NCBI RefSeq assembly: GCF_036323395.1
Contig: NZ_AP028907.1
Location: 420,001 to 452,000, forward strand
Direction: 5' to 3'
Length of the DNA stretch: 32,000 nt
Source of the DNA: Pyrodictium abyssi
GTDB lineage: Archaea; Thermoproteota; Thermoprotei_A; Sulfolobales; Pyrodictiaceae
The position numbers were made by a program, and so were the translations under genes. The notes beneath the pieces are model-generated. The model was not told the origin of the DNA. It was given only the letters and a program-made list of their open reading frames with translations, and made no database searches. This document shows positions 3,017 through 31,723 of the stretch, in pieces (position 1 is the stretch's first letter; the number at the start of each line of letters is the position of its first letter).

Positions 3017-3095
3017 GCGGCGGTCGTCTAGCCTGGACTAGGACGCCGGCCTGCCAAGCCGGCGATCCCGGGTTCAAATCCCGGCCGCCGCACCA
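3017..3095 (+). tRNA. tRNA-Gly(GCC): tRNA-Gly, anticodon GCC, with encoded CCA
   Basis: Hand-folded cloverleaf. Acceptor GCGGCGG/CCGCCGC. D stem GTCT/GGAC. Anticodon stem CCGGC/GCCGG with loop CTGCCAA. T arm CCGGG-TTCAAAT-CCCGG. Discriminator A, then CCA at 3093-3095. Confidence 0.9.
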
Positions 3096-5126: not shown

Positions 5127-7908
5127 ATCTGTGGGCAGCCTAGCCGGTATGGTGTTCCTAGCCGTAATGATATTCATGGCTATAGGCTTCGCGTTCGTAG
5201 TGCTCTCTGCATTCGACGAGTACAGCTCGGTAATCCTAGCTATAATGGGCGAGCGCGCCTCCATGCTGGGCGTGACTAGCAGTATAACCGGCTGGTGGAT
5301 GATAGGTGGCAGCGATCTCCTGATACACCTCGAGACTAGCTACCCCAAGTCGTTAACTCTGACGGGAATGGCTGTGCTCTGGGACGACGGCACAGTGACG
5401 ATAATGGACCAGGGTAACGCGACGCTGTACAACGTGGTCATGGTGGTGGGGAAGCCCGACGGGACAACCTATACGGTGTCTAGGCTCCCCGTGGTCCTCG
5501 GCCCCGGCTACCAGGTTAACATAACGCTGGCAGGTTATGCCTCGGGCCGCGAGCCAGTCTCGATATCAGCGAGCCTCAGCGCAAGCCCAGCGGTAGCGGT
5601 AGTGCCGATAAGAAGGTACGTGCCCACCTACACGGTCCCCGTCAACGTTACCGTGACGCCCACGCCAAGCTACAATTACACCCCAGCTTTGGTACAGCTA
5701 CTTCCTATGGTCTTCTCCGGCTACACTACAGCTGTGAGAGTCTACCAGGCGACACTGGGCCCAGAGGAGGCGTTCAGCCCGGCGGGCTACAGCGTCGTCT
5801 ACGGTGTCCGGGTCTCCGGCGACCTAAGCAGCCTATCCGCTAGGGATGGGAACACGCTGAACATACAGTCGCAGAGCTACGTGGTGTGCGAGGCGTACAG
5901 CGGGTGGCGCTACTACCGCGAGGTGGAGATAGTCAACAACAACCCGTACAGCTACCAGGATATACAGGTGAAGATAACGCTAAGCCGTGACAACTTCGAC
6001 TTCACCAAGGCGAACCCCGATGGCAGTGACGTGCGTGTGCTCGCCGAGGACTGTACCCCGCTACCCTACTGGATAGAGAAGTGGGACCCCGACAGGGGCA
6101 AGGCAGTGATATGGGTCAGGATACCATCGATAGAGGCCAACGGCAGAGTAAAGATAATGCTCGTCTACGGCAACCCGTCCGCTACGAGCCACGACCCACA
6201 GTACTACGGGCTCGACAAGGTGATGGAGCGGCTACCGGCCGAGGACGGCCCAGGCTACACGATATACTACCAGGAGTGGGTTATGCCGGTAAGCGGCCTC
6301 ATAGGCGGCGGCACGGCTATGGGCTGGCACGCCGACGACGGGGCCTGGAGGTACACGCTCCCGTTCAGCTTCCCGTTCTACAGTAAGACGCTCACACAGG
6401 TGTACGTGTGCAGCAACGGCTTCATATCGGAGAAGCGCATAACAGACTTCTCCGACAGCCTCTACGAGCTCCGGTCAAGGCTGATGATAGCCCCGTTCTG
6501 GGAGGACCTAATGACGTGGAGGCCATACGACATATACATACGGACCGACTACAGAGACGAGTACGGAAGAGCCGTAGTCATACGCTGGTACACCGACTTC
6601 TACTACCGCTACGGCGTAGCAAACTTCGAGCTAGTCCTCTACGAGAACGGCCTCATAAGGTTCAACTACGGGAGGATAGACGGCCGGAGCTACGACCGGC
6701 CGACAGTAGGCCTATCCCTCGGCGACCGCAAGCACTACACGGTCTCGACCTACAACGACAAGACCGCCGATAATCTCAGCAACGCGGCCTCGGTGATGTT
6801 CTGGCCCCGCAAGAAGCCCCAGACTGAGTTCACAGCAACAGTTGGCCAGGAGAAGCTGTTCTCCGTCTACAGGGCTGGCGTCGAGATAAGCTACCCCCTG
6901 GAAGGCATGGCGTCTATAACGGGGCTCGAGGTCTACGCTAACGACCCTGGCACACCCTACAGCTACGAGGTATTGATAATCGCTGGCGGCGTCCCCGTCT
7001 ACACGGTCTCCGGCGAGGACCAGAGCGGTCCGCTCAGCATCAGCCTATCTGGGCTAAGAATACCAGTCGACGGCCCAGTAACGGTCCGAGTGGTCGTGAC
7101 ACGGTTCTCCGGGTTCCAGCTACAGCTGGACCAGGTAAGGCTAACCGTGAACCGGATAACCATGACCGGCAGCAGGATAGCAATAGCGAGCTCCAATACG
7201 AGCACACTACTCCTATACGACCCGGCCACCGGGGCGTCGGCCCAGATAGACCTGGCTACGGGAGGCTTCCCAGCCACCGGCGTGACGCTCCTAGCAATGG
7301 ACTCCATGGTGCGCGGCGTGTCCACCTGGCTATGGGTGGTACGCGGCGACCTCGCGGTCCCCTACGACCTGTTCAACGAGACATGGGTGGCTGACCACGC
7401 TATAACGCTGGCAACAGCTGTGGCAGAGGGAGGCTTCGTCGCCTCCAATGGTACGCACCTCTACGTGTACCCTGGCGGCGGCGCGAGCCGGGTGTACGTC
7501 TACAGCATAGAGACCGGCGTAGTGATGAACACGATACAGCTGCCAGTAGCGCCCGGCACATACACCTCGACAGCCCAGGCGGGCATGGCGCTCTACATAC
7601 ACACGGGCGAGGCGGGCAGGCTCCTAGCACTAAACCTCGTCACCGGCGAGGTAACAGAGCTGGGCACAACGCCTAGCATTTACCCCGTGGGCATGGCCTA
7701 TGACCCGGACCGCGGGAGGCTCTGGGTAGTCCTGCGCGGCGGCGGAGTAGAGTACTACGACCTCTCGGCCGGCCGCTGGGAGGCCTACTCGGTGGCGATG
7801 CCCTACTACCCGCTGAACCCCGGCGACCGGCTCGTGTATATAGATAATAGGCTCTACCATGTAAGAAACGATGGGACTAGTAGCCTGCTAGAGCTACAGC
7901 TCGGCTAG
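5110..7908 (+). CDS. large surface protein: pilin-like N-terminus, DUF2341-like domain, NIDO-like segment, beta-propeller-like C-terminus
   Basis: ATG at 5110 gives MPRGFRSVGSLAGMVFLAVMIFMAIGFAFVVL. The segment YYREVEIVNNNPYSYQDIQVKITL...DGSDVRVL...LPYWIEKWDPDRGKAVIWVRIPSI...IMLVYGNP matches the DUF2341 pattern. Many N-x-S/T sequons. N- and C-terminal regions are paralogous to the next gene. Confidence 0.8.
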   Translation: MPRGFRSVGSLAGMVFLAVMIFMAIGFAFVVLSAFDEYSSVILAIMGERASMLGVTSSITGWWMIGGSDLLIHLETSYPKSLTLTGMAVLWDDGTVTIMDQGNATLYNVVMVVGKPDGTTYTVSRLPVVLGPGYQVNITLAGYASGREPVSISASLSASPAVAVVPIRRYVPTYTVPVNVTVTPTPSYNYTPALVQLLPMVFSGYTTAVRVYQATLGPEEAFSPAGYSVVYGVRVSGDLSSLSARDGNTLNIQSQSYVVCEAYSGWRYYREVEIVNNNPYSYQDIQVKITLSRDNFDFTKANPDGSDVRVLAEDCTPLPYWIEKWDPDRGKAVIWVRIPSIEANGRVKIMLVYGNPSATSHDPQYYGLDKVMERLPAEDGPGYTIYYQEWVMPVSGLIGGGTAMGWHADDGAWRYTLPFSFPFYSKTLTQVYVCSNGFISEKRITDFSDSLYELRSRLMIAPFWEDLMTWRPYDIYIRTDYRDEYGRAVVIRWYTDFYYRYGVANFELVLYENGLIRFNYGRIDGRSYDRPTVGLSLGDRKHYTVSTYNDKTADNLSNAASVMFWPRKKPQTEFTATVGQEKLFSVYRAGVEISYPLEGMASITGLEVYANDPGTPYSYEVLIIAGGVPVYTVSGEDQSGPLSISLSGLRIPVDGPVTVRVVVTRFSGFQLQLDQVRLTVNRITMTGSRIAIASSNTSTLLLYDPATGASAQIDLATGGFPATGVTLLAMDSMVRGVSTWLWVVRGDLAVPYDLFNETWVADHAITLATAVAEGGFVASNGTHLYVYPGGGASRVYVYSIETGVVMNTIQLPVAPGTYTSTAQAGMALYIHTGEAGRLLALNLVTGEVTELGTTPSIYPVGMAYDPDRGRLWVVLRGGGVEYYDLSAGRWEAYSVAMPYYPLNPGDRLVYIDNRLYHVRNDGTSSLLELQLG

Positions 7909-9469: not shown

Positions 9470-9547
9470 GCCGCGGTAGTATAGCCCGGCCAAGTATGCG
9501 GGCCTTTCAAGCCCGTGACCCGGGTTCAAATCCCGGCCGCGGCACCA
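9470..9547 (+). tRNA. tRNA-Glu(UUC): tRNA-Glu, anticodon TTC, with encoded CCA
   Basis: Hand-folded cloverleaf. Acceptor GCCGCGG/CCGCGGC. D stem GTAT/GTAT (two G-U pairs). Anticodon stem CGGGC/GCCCG with loop CTTTCAA. 4-nt variable loop. T arm CCGGG-TTCAAAT-CCCGG. Discriminator A, then CCA. Confidence 0.9.
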
Positions 9548-16631: not shown

Positions 16632-17636
16632 CTAGGTTCTCATTCTGCGGAGCACGTAGCGGATGAGGGGGTCTGCTAGCCGGTACTCCCTCCCGGCCTT
16701 CTCCACGAAGCTGTAGTCCCTCAGCTCCCGGAGGTACCTGGTGAACTGGGCCTTGTTGAGGCTCCGGGCTATCCTAGTCTCTAGGCAGGTCTTCAGCTCG
16801 CTCCAGGTAAGAGGCCCTGCGGCTAGACACTCTAGCAGCGCCAGGTAGCGTGTCCGGGCCTGGAGGCGGTTAGCCAGGAACCTCTCCAGCTCAGCCTGGA
16901 CCAGGCTCGCCCCCTCCTCCAGCACGCGCTCTAGCGCCTCCCTGTGGCTTCCCGTGGCGTAGGCGTAGTAGCCGTAGGCTGTTAGCCAGCCGGGTATGCC
17001 GTCGAGCCTGTCGACAGCCTCCTCCATGTAGGCCCGGGGCCACTCTAGCCCTAGCTCAGTGAACCCCTGCTCGAGGAACCCCAGGGACTCCTCGCGGCTG
17101 AGCCGGGGCATCTCGATCTCGAGGTAGGGCCTACCGTAGAGGGGTGCACGCGGGTTCCCCCTGCCCAGTAGCCGGTCTAGCAGGCCCACCTCGGAGCCCG
17201 CTAGCACGAGCTTCACGCGCTGATGATAGTCGTATATGTGGGCTAGTAGCCTCGCAAACCCCGGCACAACGGCCATGTCCTGGGCCTCGTCGAAGACGAG
17301 GACCATGTGCTCCCCAGTAGCCTCCGCCGCCTTGTCCAGGGCCTCTACGACCCGTAGCACCAGGTCGGGGGAGCGCCGCGTGACCCGGACCTCGAACCCG
17401 GCCACCGAGAGGCCCTCGACCCTCGCGAGCAGCTCACGGAGATGACGGCCTAGCCCACCGCTCCGCCGGAGCAGCTCCTCCAGGCCCCGGGCCACGACCT
17501 CGTAGACGGTGTCGCTCGTAAGCAGCGGCACGGTGCGCGCGTCGAACACAGCGTAGAGCTTCACCCCGTGTAGCCGTAGCCCGACCCTCACTAGGGACGA
17601 CTTGCCTATCCGCCTAACACCCTTGACCACTATCAT
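16632..17636 (-). CDS. Arch_ATPase-family ATPase with C-terminal DUF234-like wHTH
   Basis: Walker A GVRRIGKSSL, Walker B VLVFDEAQ, and C-terminal LALLECLAAGPLTWSELK...YLRELRDYSFVEK. Family similarity continues upstream of the ATG (LFRLGVKEDPSEFYDYREQLALLGRGL, to about 17730), but that stretch has no ATG/GTG/TTG. Confidence 0.8.
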   Translation of the reverse strand: MIVVKGVRRIGKSSLVRVGLRLHGVKLYAVFDARTVPLLTSDTVYEVVARGLEELLRRSGGLGRHLRELLARVEGLSVAGFEVRVTRRSPDLVLRVVEALDKAAEATGEHMVLVFDEAQDMAVVPGFARLLAHIYDYHQRVKLVLAGSEVGLLDRLLGRGNPRAPLYGRPYLEIEMPRLSREESLGFLEQGFTELGLEWPRAYMEEAVDRLDGIPGWLTAYGYYAYATGSHREALERVLEEGASLVQAELERFLANRLQARTRYLALLECLAAGPLTWSELKTCLETRIARSLNKAQFTRYLRELRDYSFVEKAGREYRLADPLIRYVLRRMRT

Positions 17637-17855: not shown

Positions 17856-18530
17856 GTGATCCTAGCAGAGACCCCGGTAGTAGAGGCGGAGCCCAGGCGG
17901 CTAGCATGGCCCTGGATAGAGGCCGTAACCAGCACGGGCAGCCGGGCTAGGGTGTACGCGGCTGCAGCGCCACGCCAGCTCCTATCCTGTGCACGCCAGC
18001 TACTCCTATCCCAGGCCGGGCTCACGGGCCTCCGCCTAGCCGCGGTCGTGGATAGAAGCGGGGCAGTAGTGCCCCTAGACCACCGGCTCCTAGAGGCAGC
18101 CTTCCCCCGCGTAGCCGCCCGGCTCTACGGCGACCCAGACCCCCTCGTAGAGCGCGAGAGATGGGTCAACGGGACACGGGTAGACTACCTAGTATCGACC
18201 AGCAGAGGCCTAGTCCTGGTGGAGCACAAGACCCTAGCCCACACCGGCCCAGGAGAGCCAGCGTACCCGAGGACGCCGAGCCAGCGGCTCCAACGCCAGC
18301 TAGAAGTACTGTGGAGAGCGGCAGAAGCCCTAGAGGCACGCGCAGAGCTAGTAGTAGCAGTAGCGAGCCCCTCGGCCAAGAGGCTCCTGCTAACAGGGGA
18401 CCCCGTGGCCCGCCGGCTGCTAAGAGCGCACCCGGAGAGGCTCGGGGCGAGAGCCTACCGGGTAGAAGCGCTGCTCGAAAACCGGAGGCTAGTACTGCTA
18501 TACCGAGGGGAAATCGCTGTACAGCTATAG
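17856..18530 (+). CDS. SfsA-like (sugar fermentation stimulation protein family, PD-(D/E)xK fold) protein
   Basis: GTRVDYLVSTSRGLVLVEHKTLAH...AYPRTPSQRLQRQLEVL...RAELVVAV...GARAYRVE parallels E. coli SfsA (SRIDFML...CYIEVKSVTL...FPDAVTERGQKHLRELM...RAVIFFAV...GVEILAYK). The N-terminal third is poorly conserved. Confidence 0.55.
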   Translation: MILAETPVVEAEPRRLAWPWIEAVTSTGSRARVYAAAAPRQLLSCARQLLLSQAGLTGLRLAAVVDRSGAVVPLDHRLLEAAFPRVAARLYGDPDPLVERERWVNGTRVDYLVSTSRGLVLVEHKTLAHTGPGEPAYPRTPSQRLQRQLEVLWRAAEALEARAELVVAVASPSAKRLLLTGDPVARRLLRAHPERLGARAYRVEALLENRRLVLLYRGEIAVQL

Positions 18531-18786
18531 CGCGAGTTGTGAGCCGCTACGGGGTGATGAGTAACCCCGGTGAGACCCGGCTGACAACCCTCCCCGGGCT
18601 CAGGGGAGGGGATGACTAGAGCCCCGCATCACTGACCACACGTCGCCCTGGAGCACGGCTGAAAGCCGAGCCCGGGGGAAGGAGGAGAGCCGGAGCCCCT
18701 ATCCCGCAGAGGACTCTACGCCGGAGACAGGGGGCTGCGGCGCGCTGGCCAAAGCCCTCTGTCCGGCAGAACGGGGTAGAAGCGGC

Positions 18787-19019
18787 GGGCCTCTGCCCGC
18801 GCCTCCCAGGCCCCGCTGGGGCTGCCCACCCGGGGGCTGGAGCGCCTCCCCCTGTGAGAGCGCCTGCCGGAGCTCCTAGGGGCCGGCCGTAACCCCCTAG
18901 GGCTACGGCTCAAGCCCCTTTCGGAGCCCCTTCTCAGGCGCCCTCTTCGGGGTCTGGCGTCTCCGCGCCCCGGTGGGTTCTTGCCCCTTTGGGTTACCTG
19001 GGAACGCGGGCAGAGGCCC
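18787..19019 (-). ncRNA. structured non-coding RNA, identity unresolved (RNase P RNA-like motifs); the transcript may extend to about 18531
   Basis: Perfect 15-bp terminal helix (19005-19019 with 18787-18801), extended by CCCAGG/CCUGGG and a 10-bp helix with one bulge. Internal hairpins carry GAAA and GAGA tetraloops. G-U pairs in three hairpins would become C-A mismatches on the + strand. TATA box TTTAAATA lies about 26 nt upstream on the minus strand. There is no credible ORF. Confidence 0.5.
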
Positions 19020-19033
19020 ATGTAATACCTACA

Positions 19034-19819
19034 CTATTCTTCATATTTAAACATATTGTTTAATGAGCTATAACGGGTGTCTATAAGTAGTCCGCGGTCA
19101 GAGTAACAGCGCGCTATATCGCCTAGAGTTTCATAGTACTTCTCTGGGTCCACTTCCACGGCCTCGCCTCGGTCCACGTCCACCAGTATCACGGCGTGGA
19201 GCCGGGCGAGCTGGAGATCCTCAAGCGGCACAGGAGGGTCGCGGTAGTAGCGGTCTACGAGGCTCTTGAGCCTCTCCAGCTCCTCTACGCTCCGCGCCTT
19301 GGGCGGGCGGAGCAGTATGCTTGGCACGGGGGCGGCGTAGTATGGCGGCACGGCTAGCGCCATTTTCCCAGCGTACCTGCTGTAGCGGGCAATCTTCGCG
19401 GCTAGCCGGGCCCGTAGGTAGTCCAGCGGGTCGAGCGCGTTAGAGGGAGGCGTAAACCCGGTCTCAACCTCCACTACTAGGCCGTCACCGAGACGCTCAG
19501 CGTACACGTCACAGACCAGGCCGTCTGGCAGCCTGTGCTCCACGTCAACCCTCTCGTAGCCGCGGCGGATGAGATGCCCCGCCACCACCAGCTCCATAGC
19601 CGTGTGGTTTATCTTCACGAGGCCTCTCCGGTACATCTCCACGAGCTTCCCGACTAGGGGCTCAAGCTCCTCCCGGAGGCCCATGCGGCCCGCTATCTCC
19701 TGGAGGTCGCGCTGGAACCTCTCAACGCTGTGCTGGCTCGGCGCCACAGCGGGTAGCCCCTTGTGTAGATGGGGACGGGCACCCTGTAATTCAGCCCCTG
19801 CTACGGGGCAGCCTCTCAC
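19034..19819 (-). CDS. hypothetical protein with PD-(D/E)xK nuclease-like core
   Basis: 261-codon ORF with coding-like composition. ELVVAGHLIRRGYERVDVEH..DGLVCDVYAERLGDGLVVEVETG resembles the D...(D/E)xK-type core of restriction-endonuclease-fold proteins. No family recognised by eye. Confidence 0.6.
   Translation of the reverse strand: MRGCPVAGAELQGARPHLHKGLPAVAPSQHSVERFQRDLQEIAGRMGLREELEPLVGKLVEMYRRGLVKINHTAMELVVAGHLIRRGYERVDVEHRLPDGLVCDVYAERLGDGLVVEVETGFTPPSNALDPLDYLRARLAAKIARYSRYAGKMALAVPPYYAAPVPSILLRPPKARSVEELERLKSLVDRYYRDPPVPLEDLQLARLHAVILVDVDRGEAVEVDPEKYYETLGDIARCYSDRGLLIDTRYSSLNNMFKYEE
19044..19051 (-). promoter_or_regulatory. TATA box for the minus-strand ncRNA, embedded in the last codons of the upstream CDS
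   Basis: The minus strand reads TTTAAATA, matching the archaeal TTTAWATA consensus. Its centre is about 26-28 nt upstream of 19019, the first base of the 15-bp terminal helix. Confidence 0.5.
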
Positions 19820-28241: not shown

Positions 28242-28288
28242 CTATAACACTGCACGGGAGAAGTTAAACACCTAACCCCCGGCAGCCC

Positions 28289-28318
28289 GGTACATACACC
28301 GGTACACGCGCGGGTACA
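28289..28318. repeat. three direct GGTACA(Y) repeats with 12-nt period, upstream of the PaREP1-like gene promoter
   Basis: GGTACAtacaccGGTACAcgcgcgGGTACAcc, with copies at 28289, 28301 and 28313. This places them about 50-75 nt upstream of the ATG at 28241 on the minus strand. Confidence 0.5.
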
Positions 28319-28981
28319 CCCGCCAGGACACATTCCAGCAACCCGCACAGGTAAAGACAAAAGCTAAAATGTTAGCAGACACGCAGCTAGACGTGGAGCA
28401 CCTACGAGCTAGCTCTACTACGCCAGGCCCAGGAGGCAGCCCCATGCAGGGTAACATCCAAGCCCGGTGTACACAAGTAAGCACATAAACTAGTAAGACA
28501 ACATTTAGAAGTAGTAGCATCACATGCTAAACGTTGCACCAGCATAGTACTAGGGCAGGGCGGCACACTAGCTAGCCCAGACACGCAGAGCTGAAGGCGC
28601 GGCTCCATGTGTAGTATCACTCATACTGTAGGCTTACAGCTACAGCGATAAGACAACAGCTGCACACGTAAAGCTCTATCTATGCAAGGTTATAGGATAG
28701 TCTTACTCAGCGGCACTGGTGTAGGGGCTAGCTAGCAGAGTGCATGCTCATTGGGCTGTGCGGTGCACTGTAATATCCATTGTCTGGTGGAACACATAAG
28801 GAATAGAGGTTAATGCTTAAAGCACAGCTAGCTTACACACAGCTAGGGGTCTGATAATGCACACGGTATAGCGGTACTATAACTCTGCTACGCGTAAGCC
28901 GCGCCTCTGATAATATATCCCTGCGGCTTCGGTATTGCCTCTGTACTCGTAGAGTGGTCTCGGTAGCCAACAAACAGTACA

Positions 28982-28989
28982 TTTATATA
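28982..28989 (+). promoter_or_regulatory. consensus TATA box about 150 nt upstream of paralog C
   Basis: TTTATATA. The predicted transcript start near 29012 implies a leader of about 125 nt containing the hairpins GGAGAGTC...GACTCTCC (29029-29070) and CCCCCGG-GGCT-CCGGGGG. Confidence 0.45.
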
Positions 28990-29139
28990 ATCAGGTGAAA
29001 ACCATAGTACCCCGGCGGCCGGGGGAGAGTCCAGCCTAGAGAGTGCCAGACGAGATGACGCTGACTCTCCACGCGGGCTACTGGCGAGGACGCATCGTGG
29101 CCCGGACTTATCCCCCGGGGCTCCGGGGGTGCGTAGGCC

Positions 29140-29859: not shown

Positions 29860-30269
29860 GAGCGCTAGGCTAGGCGCCGCAGCCCTAGCACGATAATGCC
29901 CCGTACGGCTCCCAGGTCACCTTCTCCTTTCCCCAGGCCCGGGGGTTCCTGGTGGTGTCTTCTCCCGTGTTCTCCCCCCGGGTGCCCTGTGGGCCTCAGG
30001 GCTGTGGGCTCGGTCCTCGGTGCTGGGAGGATGGGGGAGAAGGAGGAGGGGGGCGGCGGGCTGTGGGGCGGCGAGGGCGGCAGCCGGGGCTCCTCCGCGT
30101 TCTTCTGGCGGGCTGTTCCGCCGGGTGCTAGTGTTCTGGTCCTGGGTGCTAGAAAACATGGGCGGAGGAATTGCCTTACATGACATGTTCCGCAAGTTTT
30201 AACAAGACGGCTCCTCTATATGGCTGGGTGTTCCTTGTCTACATGAGGTGTTCCGTCTGGGGCCGGTTC

Positions 30270-31723
30270 CTAGTATATGCAGCGTTCCTCCAGTAGCAGG
30301 TCTAGCCGGTACTCCTCTATCACGGATAGCCCCGCGGTGGGTGTGGCCACGTTGAGGCGGAACCGGTGAACCGTCTCCTTCCGGCCCTGCTCTGTGAGCC
30401 TCACGTCAACCCCTAGCGAGTCTACGTCTAGCCTTATGTCGGCTATGGAGCGGAGTACGCGTAGGAGCTTCTTCTCCTCGGGGGCGGCGTCCACGGAGTA
30501 GATGTAGAAGGTTGTTACTCCCTCGCTGCGTAGCCGGAGCAGTGTGTTGATGAGCGGGTTCTCGGCCTCGCTGCCGTATAGGCTCTCTACCAGCTCTATG
30601 CCGTCTAGAATAAGTATTGTGGGTGCTTCTCTCTCGACGAGGGAGGCTACTAGCGGAGGTATATGGGCGGGGATGTGCGCGGTCGGGTTAACCGTCTCGA
30701 GGACTATCTCTTCGCCGGGTTTCTCTGTCGGCTATTATCCTGTAGATGCAAGACACCATCTTGCCTAGGAACCGCAGTGAGGACCGGAAGCTCATGATAG
30801 CCACTTTCCCATTGCTGCACCGCTGTAGTGTGGCCGCGAAGAACGGTACTATGAAGCAGCTCGAGGTGCTCTCGGAGAGGGATACGAGCACCTGGGCGCC
30901 CGGGTAGAAGTGCACTGAGGCCATGAGGTCTGGGGGCGCGGGGCCGCCGGTGAGTGTGAGCACTCTGGTTATGAACTCCCGCCTCCCCTCGCGGGCGACG
31001 CGCATCATGTCTAGCAGGCTGTAGCTTCTTTCGGCTTCTGTAGCGGCTTCTCTCCCCGGCTCCTCGGGCGCGACCACCTCTATGACCTTGCTGGGGACTA
31101 TCTCGAAGGGGAGTTCCACCTGGTGTATGGGGCCTAGCGCGCCTTGCGCAGCTCCATTATGCGGTAGGCCTTGCCCCGTAGGGTTGTGAGGCGGAGCACT
31201 ATGACAGCGTCTACTACGAACTCCTTGACGCCGTAGCCGACTGTCTTGGCGCCGTAGGGGTGCTCCGCTATGAGCAGGGTTACGACGCCTAGCTTCTTCA
31301 TAGCGTTTACGAAGAAGTTCTGCATGAACTCGCGGGCACGGGTCTTGTCGCCCACCATCTGTAGTATGACCGTAACGCTGTTGACCACGAGCCTCCGTAT
31401 ACCGTGCTCCTCGACGAATTGGGCCATCTCCTCTAGCTGGGCTATCAGCGCCTCCTCGTCAACGACCGTGAGCGCCTCCATGTAGTGTACTAGGCCCTTC
31501 TCCTCGTAGGACCGGAGGTCCAGGCCGAGCCGCTTCATGTGCTCGAGGAACTCGTCGTGGGGCTCCACGAAGCTCACGTAGAGTCCGGGTTCGCCCCTCC
31601 GGGCCCCTCGTAGATGAACCGGGCTGCGAAGCTGGACTTACCCGTACCCGGGTTACCGGCCACAAGCACGATAGCGCCGCGGGGCACGCCGCCTAGCAGG
31701 CGGTCTAGCTCCTCAATACTCAA
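30270..31723 (-). pseudogene. KaiC/RecA-superfamily ATPase gene (two-domain, second P-loop degenerate) disrupted by at least three frame changes
   Basis: Minus-strand reading from the TTG at 31723 gives MSIEELDRLLGGVPRGAIVLVAGNPGTGKSSFAARFIYEG, then the frame is lost in a G4 run (+ strand CCCC at 31604-31607). It continues as (A)RRGEPGLYVSFVEPHDEF... (ORF 31134..31577) and stops at KAR*. The KaiC C-terminal motif HQVELPFEIVPSKVIEVV continues in another frame (ORF 30688..31119). A third shift near the A3 run (30720-30722) leads into an open frame to 30270 (ILILDGIELVESL = Walker B-like). Confidence 0.6.

Follow-up and report, generated by a model that had tools for sequence, protein, structure and literature searches.

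The gap between two convergent genes of the archaeon Pyrodictium abyssi raised the question of whether it holds a rearranged copy of a known RNA gene or elements of another kind. It lies in a stretch of 32,000 nucleotides (nt) on contig NZ_AP028907.1 (positions 420,001 to 452,000; hereafter the window, numbered from its first letter), the G+C content of which is about 63%, and it spans positions 18531-19033 between the stop codons of the genes at 17856-18530 (+) and 19034-19819 (-). A sequence-only reading had described the gap as a highly structured region free of credible open reading frames (ORFs), preceded by its own TATA box and carrying RNase P RNA-like motifs in permuted order, with two separate RNAs as a fallback. 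It was found that the gap is made up of three parts, namely a rod-shaped RNA element read on the minus strand (the rod), a spacer that is not conserved, and a conserved box C/D-like block read on the plus strand; the features are listed in Table 1. The rod recurs beside orthologues of the gene at 19034-19819 in other archaea.

A coding function of the gap was considered and rejected. Neither of its two ORFs of at least 60 codons gave a family match in Pfam, and the one of 101 amino acids (aa), being Arg/Pro/Gly-rich in composition, is not retained in L001, the closest syntenic relative, so that the earlier verdict of a gap without a credible ORF stands.

Comparison with shuffled controls revealed the whole gap to be strongly structured, with z = -8.55 on the minus strand and z = -8.36 on the plus strand. 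Nearly all of this folding signal comes from 18787-19019, where z reached -11.4 on the minus strand; values were about -3 on either strand for 18646-18786 and about -1 for 18540-18645. The perfect 15-bp helix by which 19005-19019 pairs with 18787-18801 is present as had been described. Regarding the hairpins said to be enclosed by it, the 10-bp hairpin was recovered as the apex of the rod, whereas separate hairpins with GAGA and GAAA tetraloops were not, both the minimum free energy (MFE) fold and the relatives giving one unbranched rod. The apex carries the signature GCCC-UNRG-GGGU at 18892-18903, closed by a conserved G.U pair.

The minus strand is favoured by an MFE of -188.2 kcal/mol versus -174.2 kcal/mol for the plus strand and by six versus four G-U pairs, and five homologous rods agree, in line with what had been proposed from the G-U pairs. 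The rod starts 15 nt past the stop codon of the upstream gene (19034-19036), and in the related loci the RNA likewise lies no more than about 400 nt from the orthologous gene. Its candidate TATA box was read directly from the sequence at the position given earlier, and L001 has TTTAATTA in place of TTTAAATA. The proposal of a real, structured non-coding RNA with its own predicted promoter, starting on the minus strand at about position 19019, was upheld.

At its other end, the rod runs into the pyrimidine-rich stretch CCCGCCGCUUCUACCC, where the RNA probably ends or is terminated. A 16-nt exact match to it follows directly after the rod in the distant loci L006, L007 and L008, related tails (CUUCUACCC, UUCUAC) occur in L012 and L018, and in AT-rich members of the rod group a plain U-run follows the rod directly. 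As an observation apart, a direct repeat (ACCGGGTAGAAGCG / ACGGGGTAGAAGCG) that may be due to chance was seen on the plus strand at 18457-18470 and 18771-18784; one copy is complementary to the tail motif of the rod and the other falls within the 3'-terminal part of the SfsA-like gene.

The related loci used here are contigs encoding homologues of the 261-aa protein specified by the neighbouring gene; they were found by alignment-based scans, whereas a scan with the single protein found none. The closest of them, L001, is an ENA metagenome contig with the same gene order as the window and a copy of the neighbouring protein that is 89% identical. Its gap aligns to that of the window in two blocks, one being the rod and the other a 3' block, while the stretch between them could not be aligned. 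The rod has about 76% sequence identity in L001 and folds independently into the same rod. When the pairs of the window were mapped on L001, 52 were unchanged, eight showed one-sided compatible changes, seven were compensatory and 15 were broken or shifted; covariation in a relative thus supports the helix, and at the apex a U-A pair has become C-G. U-runs are present on the rod strand in the unaligned stretch of L001, which implies that the rod transcript would end ahead of the conserved 3' block.

Rods were also found beside the same gene in more distant lineages. Hairpins of the GCCC-UNRG-GGGU type lie downstream of the gene in L002 (with an identical sequence in L003 and L011), L006 (also L007, L008 and L013), L012, L014, L018 and L097, and L146 has a rod after the gene with the apex variant GCCC-UUGG-GGGC. 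L009 differs in that its rod precedes the gene and diverges from it on the opposite strand. The other flanking genes of the rod loci vary (IMPDH, a Na/Ca exchanger and others). A scan of 170 loci for the apex pattern [AG]CCCT[AG][AG]GGGGT gave 14 matches, 13 of them at the apex of a rod beside the orthologous gene (L001, L002, L003, L006, L007, L008, L009, L011, L012, L013, L014, L018 and L097) and one elsewhere (L053), compared with an estimated chance expectation of about 0.6 matches in 1.2 Mb.

The strand assignment is shared by these rods. The closing G.U pair of the apex is replaced by A-U in L014 and L009, a change that fits an RNA on the gene strand, because the other strand would give an A.C mismatch. 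All six rods tested were more stable on the gene strand, by 5-31 kcal/mol, and five of the six had an excess of G.U pairs on it, L001 being tied at seven each. Purines predominate in the internal loops on the gene strand, and TATA-like elements were located 20-28 nt before the base of the rod in L002, L006, L009, L014, L016 and L018. An alignment of all rods with MAFFT/RNAalifold was of low quality, owing to differing lengths and internal loops; the comparison was therefore made pairwise and per lineage, with palindromes being detected by self-BLAST. The basal loops of L006, L009, L014 and L018 may resemble a loop-E motif (AGUA/GAA), and a kink-turn (K-turn) reading of the basal loop was discarded, as the consensus could not be fitted. 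In L006 (also in L012 and L013), the rod begins about 140 nt past the stop codon of the gene, and the stretch in between (3664-3800 in L006) has a further conserved hairpin, UGGGUGAACGGUGAUCAGGUCU...AGAUCUGAUUAAAUCCCA.

No second copy of the rod was found within the window. A miniature inverted-repeat transposable element or another dispersed palindromic repeat was rejected, the rod being present in single copy in the window and in each fetched related locus, always beside the same gene.

Extending the comparison to about 175 loci across TACK archaea, at least 90 were found to carry one structured RNA outside Rfam beside the gene, in one of three arrangements (downstream on the same strand, downstream and convergent, or upstream and divergent), and more than 45 of 170 flanks had z < -4. 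That rods with the same apex, and with them a larger set of RNAs, accompany the orthologous gene in three orientations across TACK archaea is well supported. Rfam gave no match for these RNAs in any locus tested, two RNA types were never seen in one locus among those searched with more than one detector, and no constant protein-gene neighbour besides the PD-(D/E)xK-fold gene was found in the fetched loci.

Type D, the largest group, reads GCCCAAGUUGRG-RAGCA-GGCUU in its 5' part, GNGAUNNCAUCAAM in its central loop and AGGCUUAGAC-YCAACUUGGGC in its 3' part, after which come U-runs; the motifs GCUU, GAU..AUCAA and GGCUU.G are nearly invariant in it. Its consensus has 30 pairs, 20 with compensatory changes, and contains invariant U.G pairs, by which the strand is fixed. 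At E ≤ 10, the search of type D against Rfam returned just sub-threshold matches to microRNA hairpins. A pairing of the conserved loop with the start region of the gene, sought by eye in L048, amounted to a 6-nt match and was dismissed as chance.

Type C RNAs are branched and about 230 nt long, closed by a stem of 10 bp and containing three hairpins and a GAAA/GAGUA internal loop; 35 of the 65 consensus pairs show compensatory changes, and there was no Rfam match. Type B RNAs share a conserved hairpin, GUGCGUG-UUAGACCCCUAGGCCC-CACGCAC, the loop of which has both UUAGAC, as in the 3' motif of type D, and CCCUAGG, as in the apex of the rod. In L171-L173, and in this lineage only, a HEPN / nucleotidyltransferase (NTP_transf_2) pair, a typical toxin-antitoxin-like module, was observed about 1-2 kb upstream of the gene.

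A covariance model, R1, was built from 22 upstream-divergent RNAs of type D and comprises the basal stem, a GRAGCA / UUAGAC loop and a GAUNNCAUCAA loop. It recovered rods outside its training set (L016, L031, L074, L085, L127 and L167) and found further loci, with matches only right beside the gene in about 600 kb of fetched loci. Searching 74 kb of rod-type and other loci with filters off, the best match was the full-length rod of L002 (15.5 bits, E = 0.007), followed by the rods of L018 and L097 (E about 0.1). Both the rod-type apex and a basal motif like that of R1 are present in L018. The strand assignment of L167 is ambiguous: its GC-rich element at 726-862 folds slightly better and has more G.U pairs on the strand opposite to that of the AGGCUUAGAC motif and the R1 call. 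In the Nitrosotalea locus L174, a 700-nt AT-rich gap after the gene (5661-6357) gave no R1 match and weak structure (z = -1.85).

For the protein that accompanies these RNAs, 156 homologues were collected at 42-89% identity, all of them from TACK lineages and none with a Pfam domain; the closest named relatives, at 61-68% identity, belong to metagenome-assembled genomes labelled Thermoproteota and Pyrodictiaceae. The window protein had no match in Pfam or PADLOC and nothing significant in a PDB sequence search. NCBIfam returned only blaPOM, insignificant at 15.5 bits versus a cutoff of 610, and PHROG gave insignificant matches only (E about 0.07, for one homologue). The AlphaFold2 model (mean predicted local distance difference test score 84, predicted template modelling (TM) score 0.79) was compared with the PDB using Foldseek, and the best matches were all PD-(D/E)xK nucleases, namely SfsA, XisH, Can2, Cas4, NucS and EndA.

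We propose that the gap would comprise two convergent small-RNA genes with a non-functional spacer between them. The TATA box at 19044-19051 would drive a minus-strand transcript of about 235-250 nt from about position 19019, which would fold into a long, stable rod (19019-18787) capped by the GCCC-UAGG-GGGU hairpin and end in the pyrimidine-rich tail. The rod would be the Pyrodictiaceae-type member of an undescribed structured-RNA family that lies beside the PD-(D/E)xK-fold gene in many TACK archaea, and could work as a stable, protein-bound RNA with the neighbouring protein, as its scaffold, regulator or substrate. Its paired 5' and 3' ends would protect the RNA, the basal stem with purine-rich (loop-E-like) internal loops and the apical loop may serve as recognition sites, and the long duplex would be a lineage-variable spacer. 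The partnership of the rod RNA with the adjacent protein is the reading we prefer, and we hold it tentatively. The bolder idea of an unrecognised TACK-wide ribonucleoprotein, in which the protein of about 220 aa would be joined by a dedicated adjacent structured RNA of 150-250 nt whose body started out compact and branched and gave rise, by diversification, to the long GC-rich rods of the hyperthermophilic Pyrodictiaceae, is possible and rather unlikely.

Several points weigh against this proposal. Transcription, ends and abundance of the rod RNA are predicted from TATA-like, U-run and pyrimidine signals. The assignment of the protein to a nuclease-like fold depends on weak Foldseek matches (E about 5e-3, TM about 0.28), RNA binding by it is putative, and a physical or functional link of the RNA to the protein is likewise presumed. 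Conservation between lineages does not extend to the internal loops of the rods, so that there is no specific protein-binding site to point to. R1, applied with filters off to the rod of the window itself, produced merely trivial local matches; membership of this rod in the wider family would thus run along a chain of similarity (shared apex, gene position and the intermediates L002 and L018) and not through a direct model match. In many loci, mostly of soil Nitrososphaera, the 330 nt next to the gene are free of structured RNA, which implies that the pairing is not obligatory in cis. Finally, with the RNA promoter located inside the gene end, structural reasons alone could account for the persistence of the adjacency in the window.

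The main rival, which we regard as doubtful without dismissing it, is that the rod is a genuine stable RNA whose function is unrelated to the protein, the adjacency reflecting inherited gene order, shared promoter regions and genome compactness. The structural, strand and promoter evidence applies to it equally, the many protein loci devoid of an adjacent RNA and the putative nature of the protein-RNA contact suit it, and the promoter overlapping the gene end in the window would itself resist separation. However, the adjacency has been retained in three arrangements across classes whose other flanking genes all differ, which passive synteny does not predict, and the restriction of R1 matches to the immediate neighbourhood of the gene also favours partnership of RNA and protein.

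A role of the rod in cis, as a stable 3'-end structure of the upstream mRNA or as an insulator or terminator between the convergent genes, is disfavoured and appears improbable. It would agree with the position of the window rod directly past a stop codon, on the same strand and between convergent genes, and with the fact that 3' ends can be stabilised by long GC-rich hairpins. Yet a TATA element is placed 20-28 nt ahead of the rod in all lineages, the rod of L006 begins about 140 nt past the stop codon, and a 230-nt rod with a sequence-conserved apex far exceeds what termination needs. In L009 and about 60 other loci, moreover, the RNA lies upstream on the opposite strand and hence cannot be the 3' untranslated region of the gene.

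Slightly more improbable still, and disfavoured because of the strand asymmetry, is a DNA-level element, that is, an imperfect palindrome acting as a cruciform, recombination or cleavage site for the adjacent nuclease, or the relic of a palindromic mobile element. The rod is a near-palindrome, with arms about 76% self-complementary over 186 nt in L002, and the neighbouring protein has a nuclease fold, with XisH (an excision factor) among its best structural matches. Against this, G.U pairs, stability and purine-rich loops are consistently asymmetric between the strands, the wider family has an invariant U.G, promoter and terminator signals are oriented, the window contains no further copy, and the branched variants are not palindromes at all.

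That the region is an RNase P RNA with permuted halves, or a signal recognition particle (SRP) RNA, is effectively excluded. Short look-alike strings are present, and the one property in common with archaeal RNase P RNA (types A, M and T) is that of an intergenic structured RNA preceded by its own promoter. Archaeal SRP (7S) RNA shares with the rod the shape of a GC-rich long hairpin, 200-300 nt in length, in which the 5' and 3' ends are paired and the internal loops are rich in purines. However, RNaseP_arch, type-T RNase P and Archaea_SRP were absent both from the window at gathering score and from 18400-19150 at E ≤ 10, and RNase P and SRP models gave no match in the related loci tested. The permissive scan of 18400-19150 with Rfam 15 (both strands, E ≤ 10) assigned the region to no RNase P, SRP or other family, returning three sub-threshold microRNA-hairpin matches on the rod and a weak sR7 match on the plus strand. 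A P4-type long-range pairing between conserved CR-I and CR-V strings, which the sequence-only reading had not identified either, is missing from both predicted folds of the gap, one for either strand, and the rod, unbranched in the window and in six relatives, has no multi-helix catalytic core. As to SRP RNA, the rod lacks the helix 6/8 branch that bears the SRP54/SRP19 sites and the Alu-domain hairpins, and the conserved helix-8 motif is not found in it.

The individual motifs of the sequence-only reading fell away on the same grounds, the RNase P-like strings having no covariance-model support. Its CR-I-like stretch (18695-18717) is within the segment that cannot be aligned with L001 and is thus not conserved, and GUGUGGUCAGUGAUG (18627-18641) is the reverse complement of the D-box end of the plus-strand element. 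The 8-bp hairpin does exist, but its RNase P role does not follow, the box order of its block reading correctly only on the plus strand. With the presumed halves being separate elements on opposite strands, one of them an unbranched rod, and with no match in Rfam, a circular permutation was abandoned in favour of the fallback of two separate RNAs, the minus-strand rod and the plus-strand C/D-like block.

Table 1. Features of the gap and its surroundings in the window, and RNA types found beside the orthologous gene in related loci.
Feature	Position	Strand	Remarks
SfsA-like nuclease gene	17856..18530	+	Pfam SfsA, E = 9.6e-07; rod RNA in convergent orientation
Box C/D-like small RNA candidate	18551..18639	+	Just past the SfsA-like gene; about 89 nt
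C box	18554-18560	+	GUGAUGA, read from the sequence
D' box	18581-18584	+	CUGA, read from the sequence
8-bp hairpin	18588-18610	+	Between D' and C'
C' box	18611-18615	+	GAUGA, read from the sequence
D box	18632-18635	+	CUGA, read from the sequence
Spacer stretches of the C/D-like element, candidate guides			GUAACCCCGGUGAGACCCGG, CUAGAGCCCCGCAUCA
Spacer	18640..18773		No alignment with L001 (noise-like columns, indels); contains the 'P3-like hairpin' and the 'CR-I-like' stretch
Pyrimidine-rich stretch	18774..18789	-	CCCGCCGCUUCUACCC; rod pairing ends with its first three bases, remainder is the 3' tail
Rod RNA	18787..19019	-	233 nt; essentially unbranched hairpin, about 93 pairs, small purine-rich internal loops
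Apical hairpin	18886..18909	-	GCCGUAGCCC-UAGG-GGGUUACGGC; 10 bp; conserved apex of the rod
PD-(D/E)xK nuclease-like fold protein gene	19034..19819	-	About 220 aa conserved, longest ORF 261 aa; constant neighbour of the RNA family
TATA-box candidate	19044..19051	-	TTTAAATA; within the final codons of the upstream gene; pairing in the rod begins 25 nt further on
Type D RNA	e.g. L048:2201-2368	-	About 60 loci; upstream, divergent; Bathyarchaeia, Brockarchaeota and others; largest group
Type C RNA, same strand as gene	L017:3214-3448	+	Also L021, L027, L028, L059, L060; downstream; Nitrososphaerales
Type C RNA, opposite strand	L041:3158-3379	-	Also L047, L061, L066, L073; downstream; some Bathyarchaeia
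Type B RNA	L025:3160-3430; L171:5690-5870	+	L025 type also in L038, L039, L055; after the gene; about 200-260 nt

On the plus strand, the 3' block (about 18545-18642) is essentially 100% identical in L001, with the exceptions of the loop of the hairpin between D' and C' and an extra CC beside the C box. Conservation sets in at the C box and ends just past the D box. The order C-D'-C'-D was found once in the window and in none of 200 dinucleotide shuffles, relaxed spacing being allowed. We conclude with moderate confidence that 18551-18639 is a candidate box C/D-like (kink-turn) small RNA and not a canonical archaeal guide RNA; its probable source would be the 3' end of the transcript of the SfsA-like gene. 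Two features argue against this assignment: the spacers C-D' and C'-D measure 20 and 16 nt, compared with the usual value of about 12 nt, and the only two copies, those of the window and L001, are identical and offer no covariation.

Like archaeal box C/D small RNAs, the element has its boxes in the canonical order with conservation bounded by C and D, and it sits in the 3' flank of a protein gene, the SfsA-like gene, with identical synteny in L001. Such a location is common for C/D small RNAs in Crenarchaeota. It differs from them in its length of about 89 nt (about 55 nt in known members), in its spacers, which are near-invariant at 12 nt in known members, and in the 8-bp hairpin inserted between D' and C'. 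The match to the Rfam C/D small nucleolar RNA family sR7 on the plus strand was weak, its 16.1 bits (E = 0.44) being far under the gathering score of 37. Archaeal C/D families are lineage-specific, and a miss by a curated model says little. The spacer that separates this element from the rod is proposed to be non-functional.

Among known systems, the bacterial Y RNAs encoded beside rsr (the Ro60 orthologue) come to mind, being likewise small and structured, with a long stem formed between the 5' and 3' ends and with genes that adjoin that of the presumed protein partner; we take both to combine a variable body with a conserved binding module. The neighbour here has a PD-(D/E)xK fold, however, and not a TROVE/Ro one, no match to a Y RNA covariance model was obtained, and the rod exceeds the Y RNAs two- to threefold in length and has no tRNA-like domain. 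OLE RNA (with OapA/B/C) and 6S RNA (beside ygfA) were also first recognised by conservation and a fixed protein-gene neighbour, and their function became known only long after recognition. 6S RNA is a long rod as well, but with a central bubble that is lacking here, and both are bacterial, unrelated in sequence and architecture, and have a different kind of partner protein. Y RNA/Rsr, OLE/Oap and 6S RNA are thus analogies, not memberships.

The RNA family is apparently undescribed, being absent from Rfam 15, and no description of these RNAs or of the gene-RNA pair was found in the literature searched. We know of no described precedent for an RNA-dependent or RNA-regulated nuclease of the PD-(D/E)xK fold, and, to our knowledge, widespread structured archaeal RNA families are few (rRNA, tRNA, RNase P, SRP, and C/D and H/ACA guides). 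If the proposal is true, a further covarying family across several TACK classes, beside one uncharacterised nuclease-fold protein, would be a rare addition, and the function of the protein would become testable through its RNA. For annotation, a false lead is removed, the gap holding no permuted RNase P RNA, and the covariance model and signature motifs can now be used for finding these RNAs in metagenome-assembled genomes.

At gathering score, the Rfam 15 scan of the whole window gave nothing beyond two tRNAs, tRNA-Gly(GCC) at 3017-3092 (+) and tRNA-Glu(UUC) at 9470-9544 (+), which were also the sole ARAGORN matches. Two further stretches, 28248-29139 and 29860-30687, each exceed 800 nt with no ORF of at least 110 codons; their folding was unremarkable (|z| < 2.3), and the former includes the segment of lowest GC content in the window (0.48, 28501-29000). 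Two genes away from the rod, at 16632-17636 (-), an archaeal ATPase of 334 aa (PF01637/AAA_22) is encoded, in which an MCM-type winged helix forms the C-terminus.

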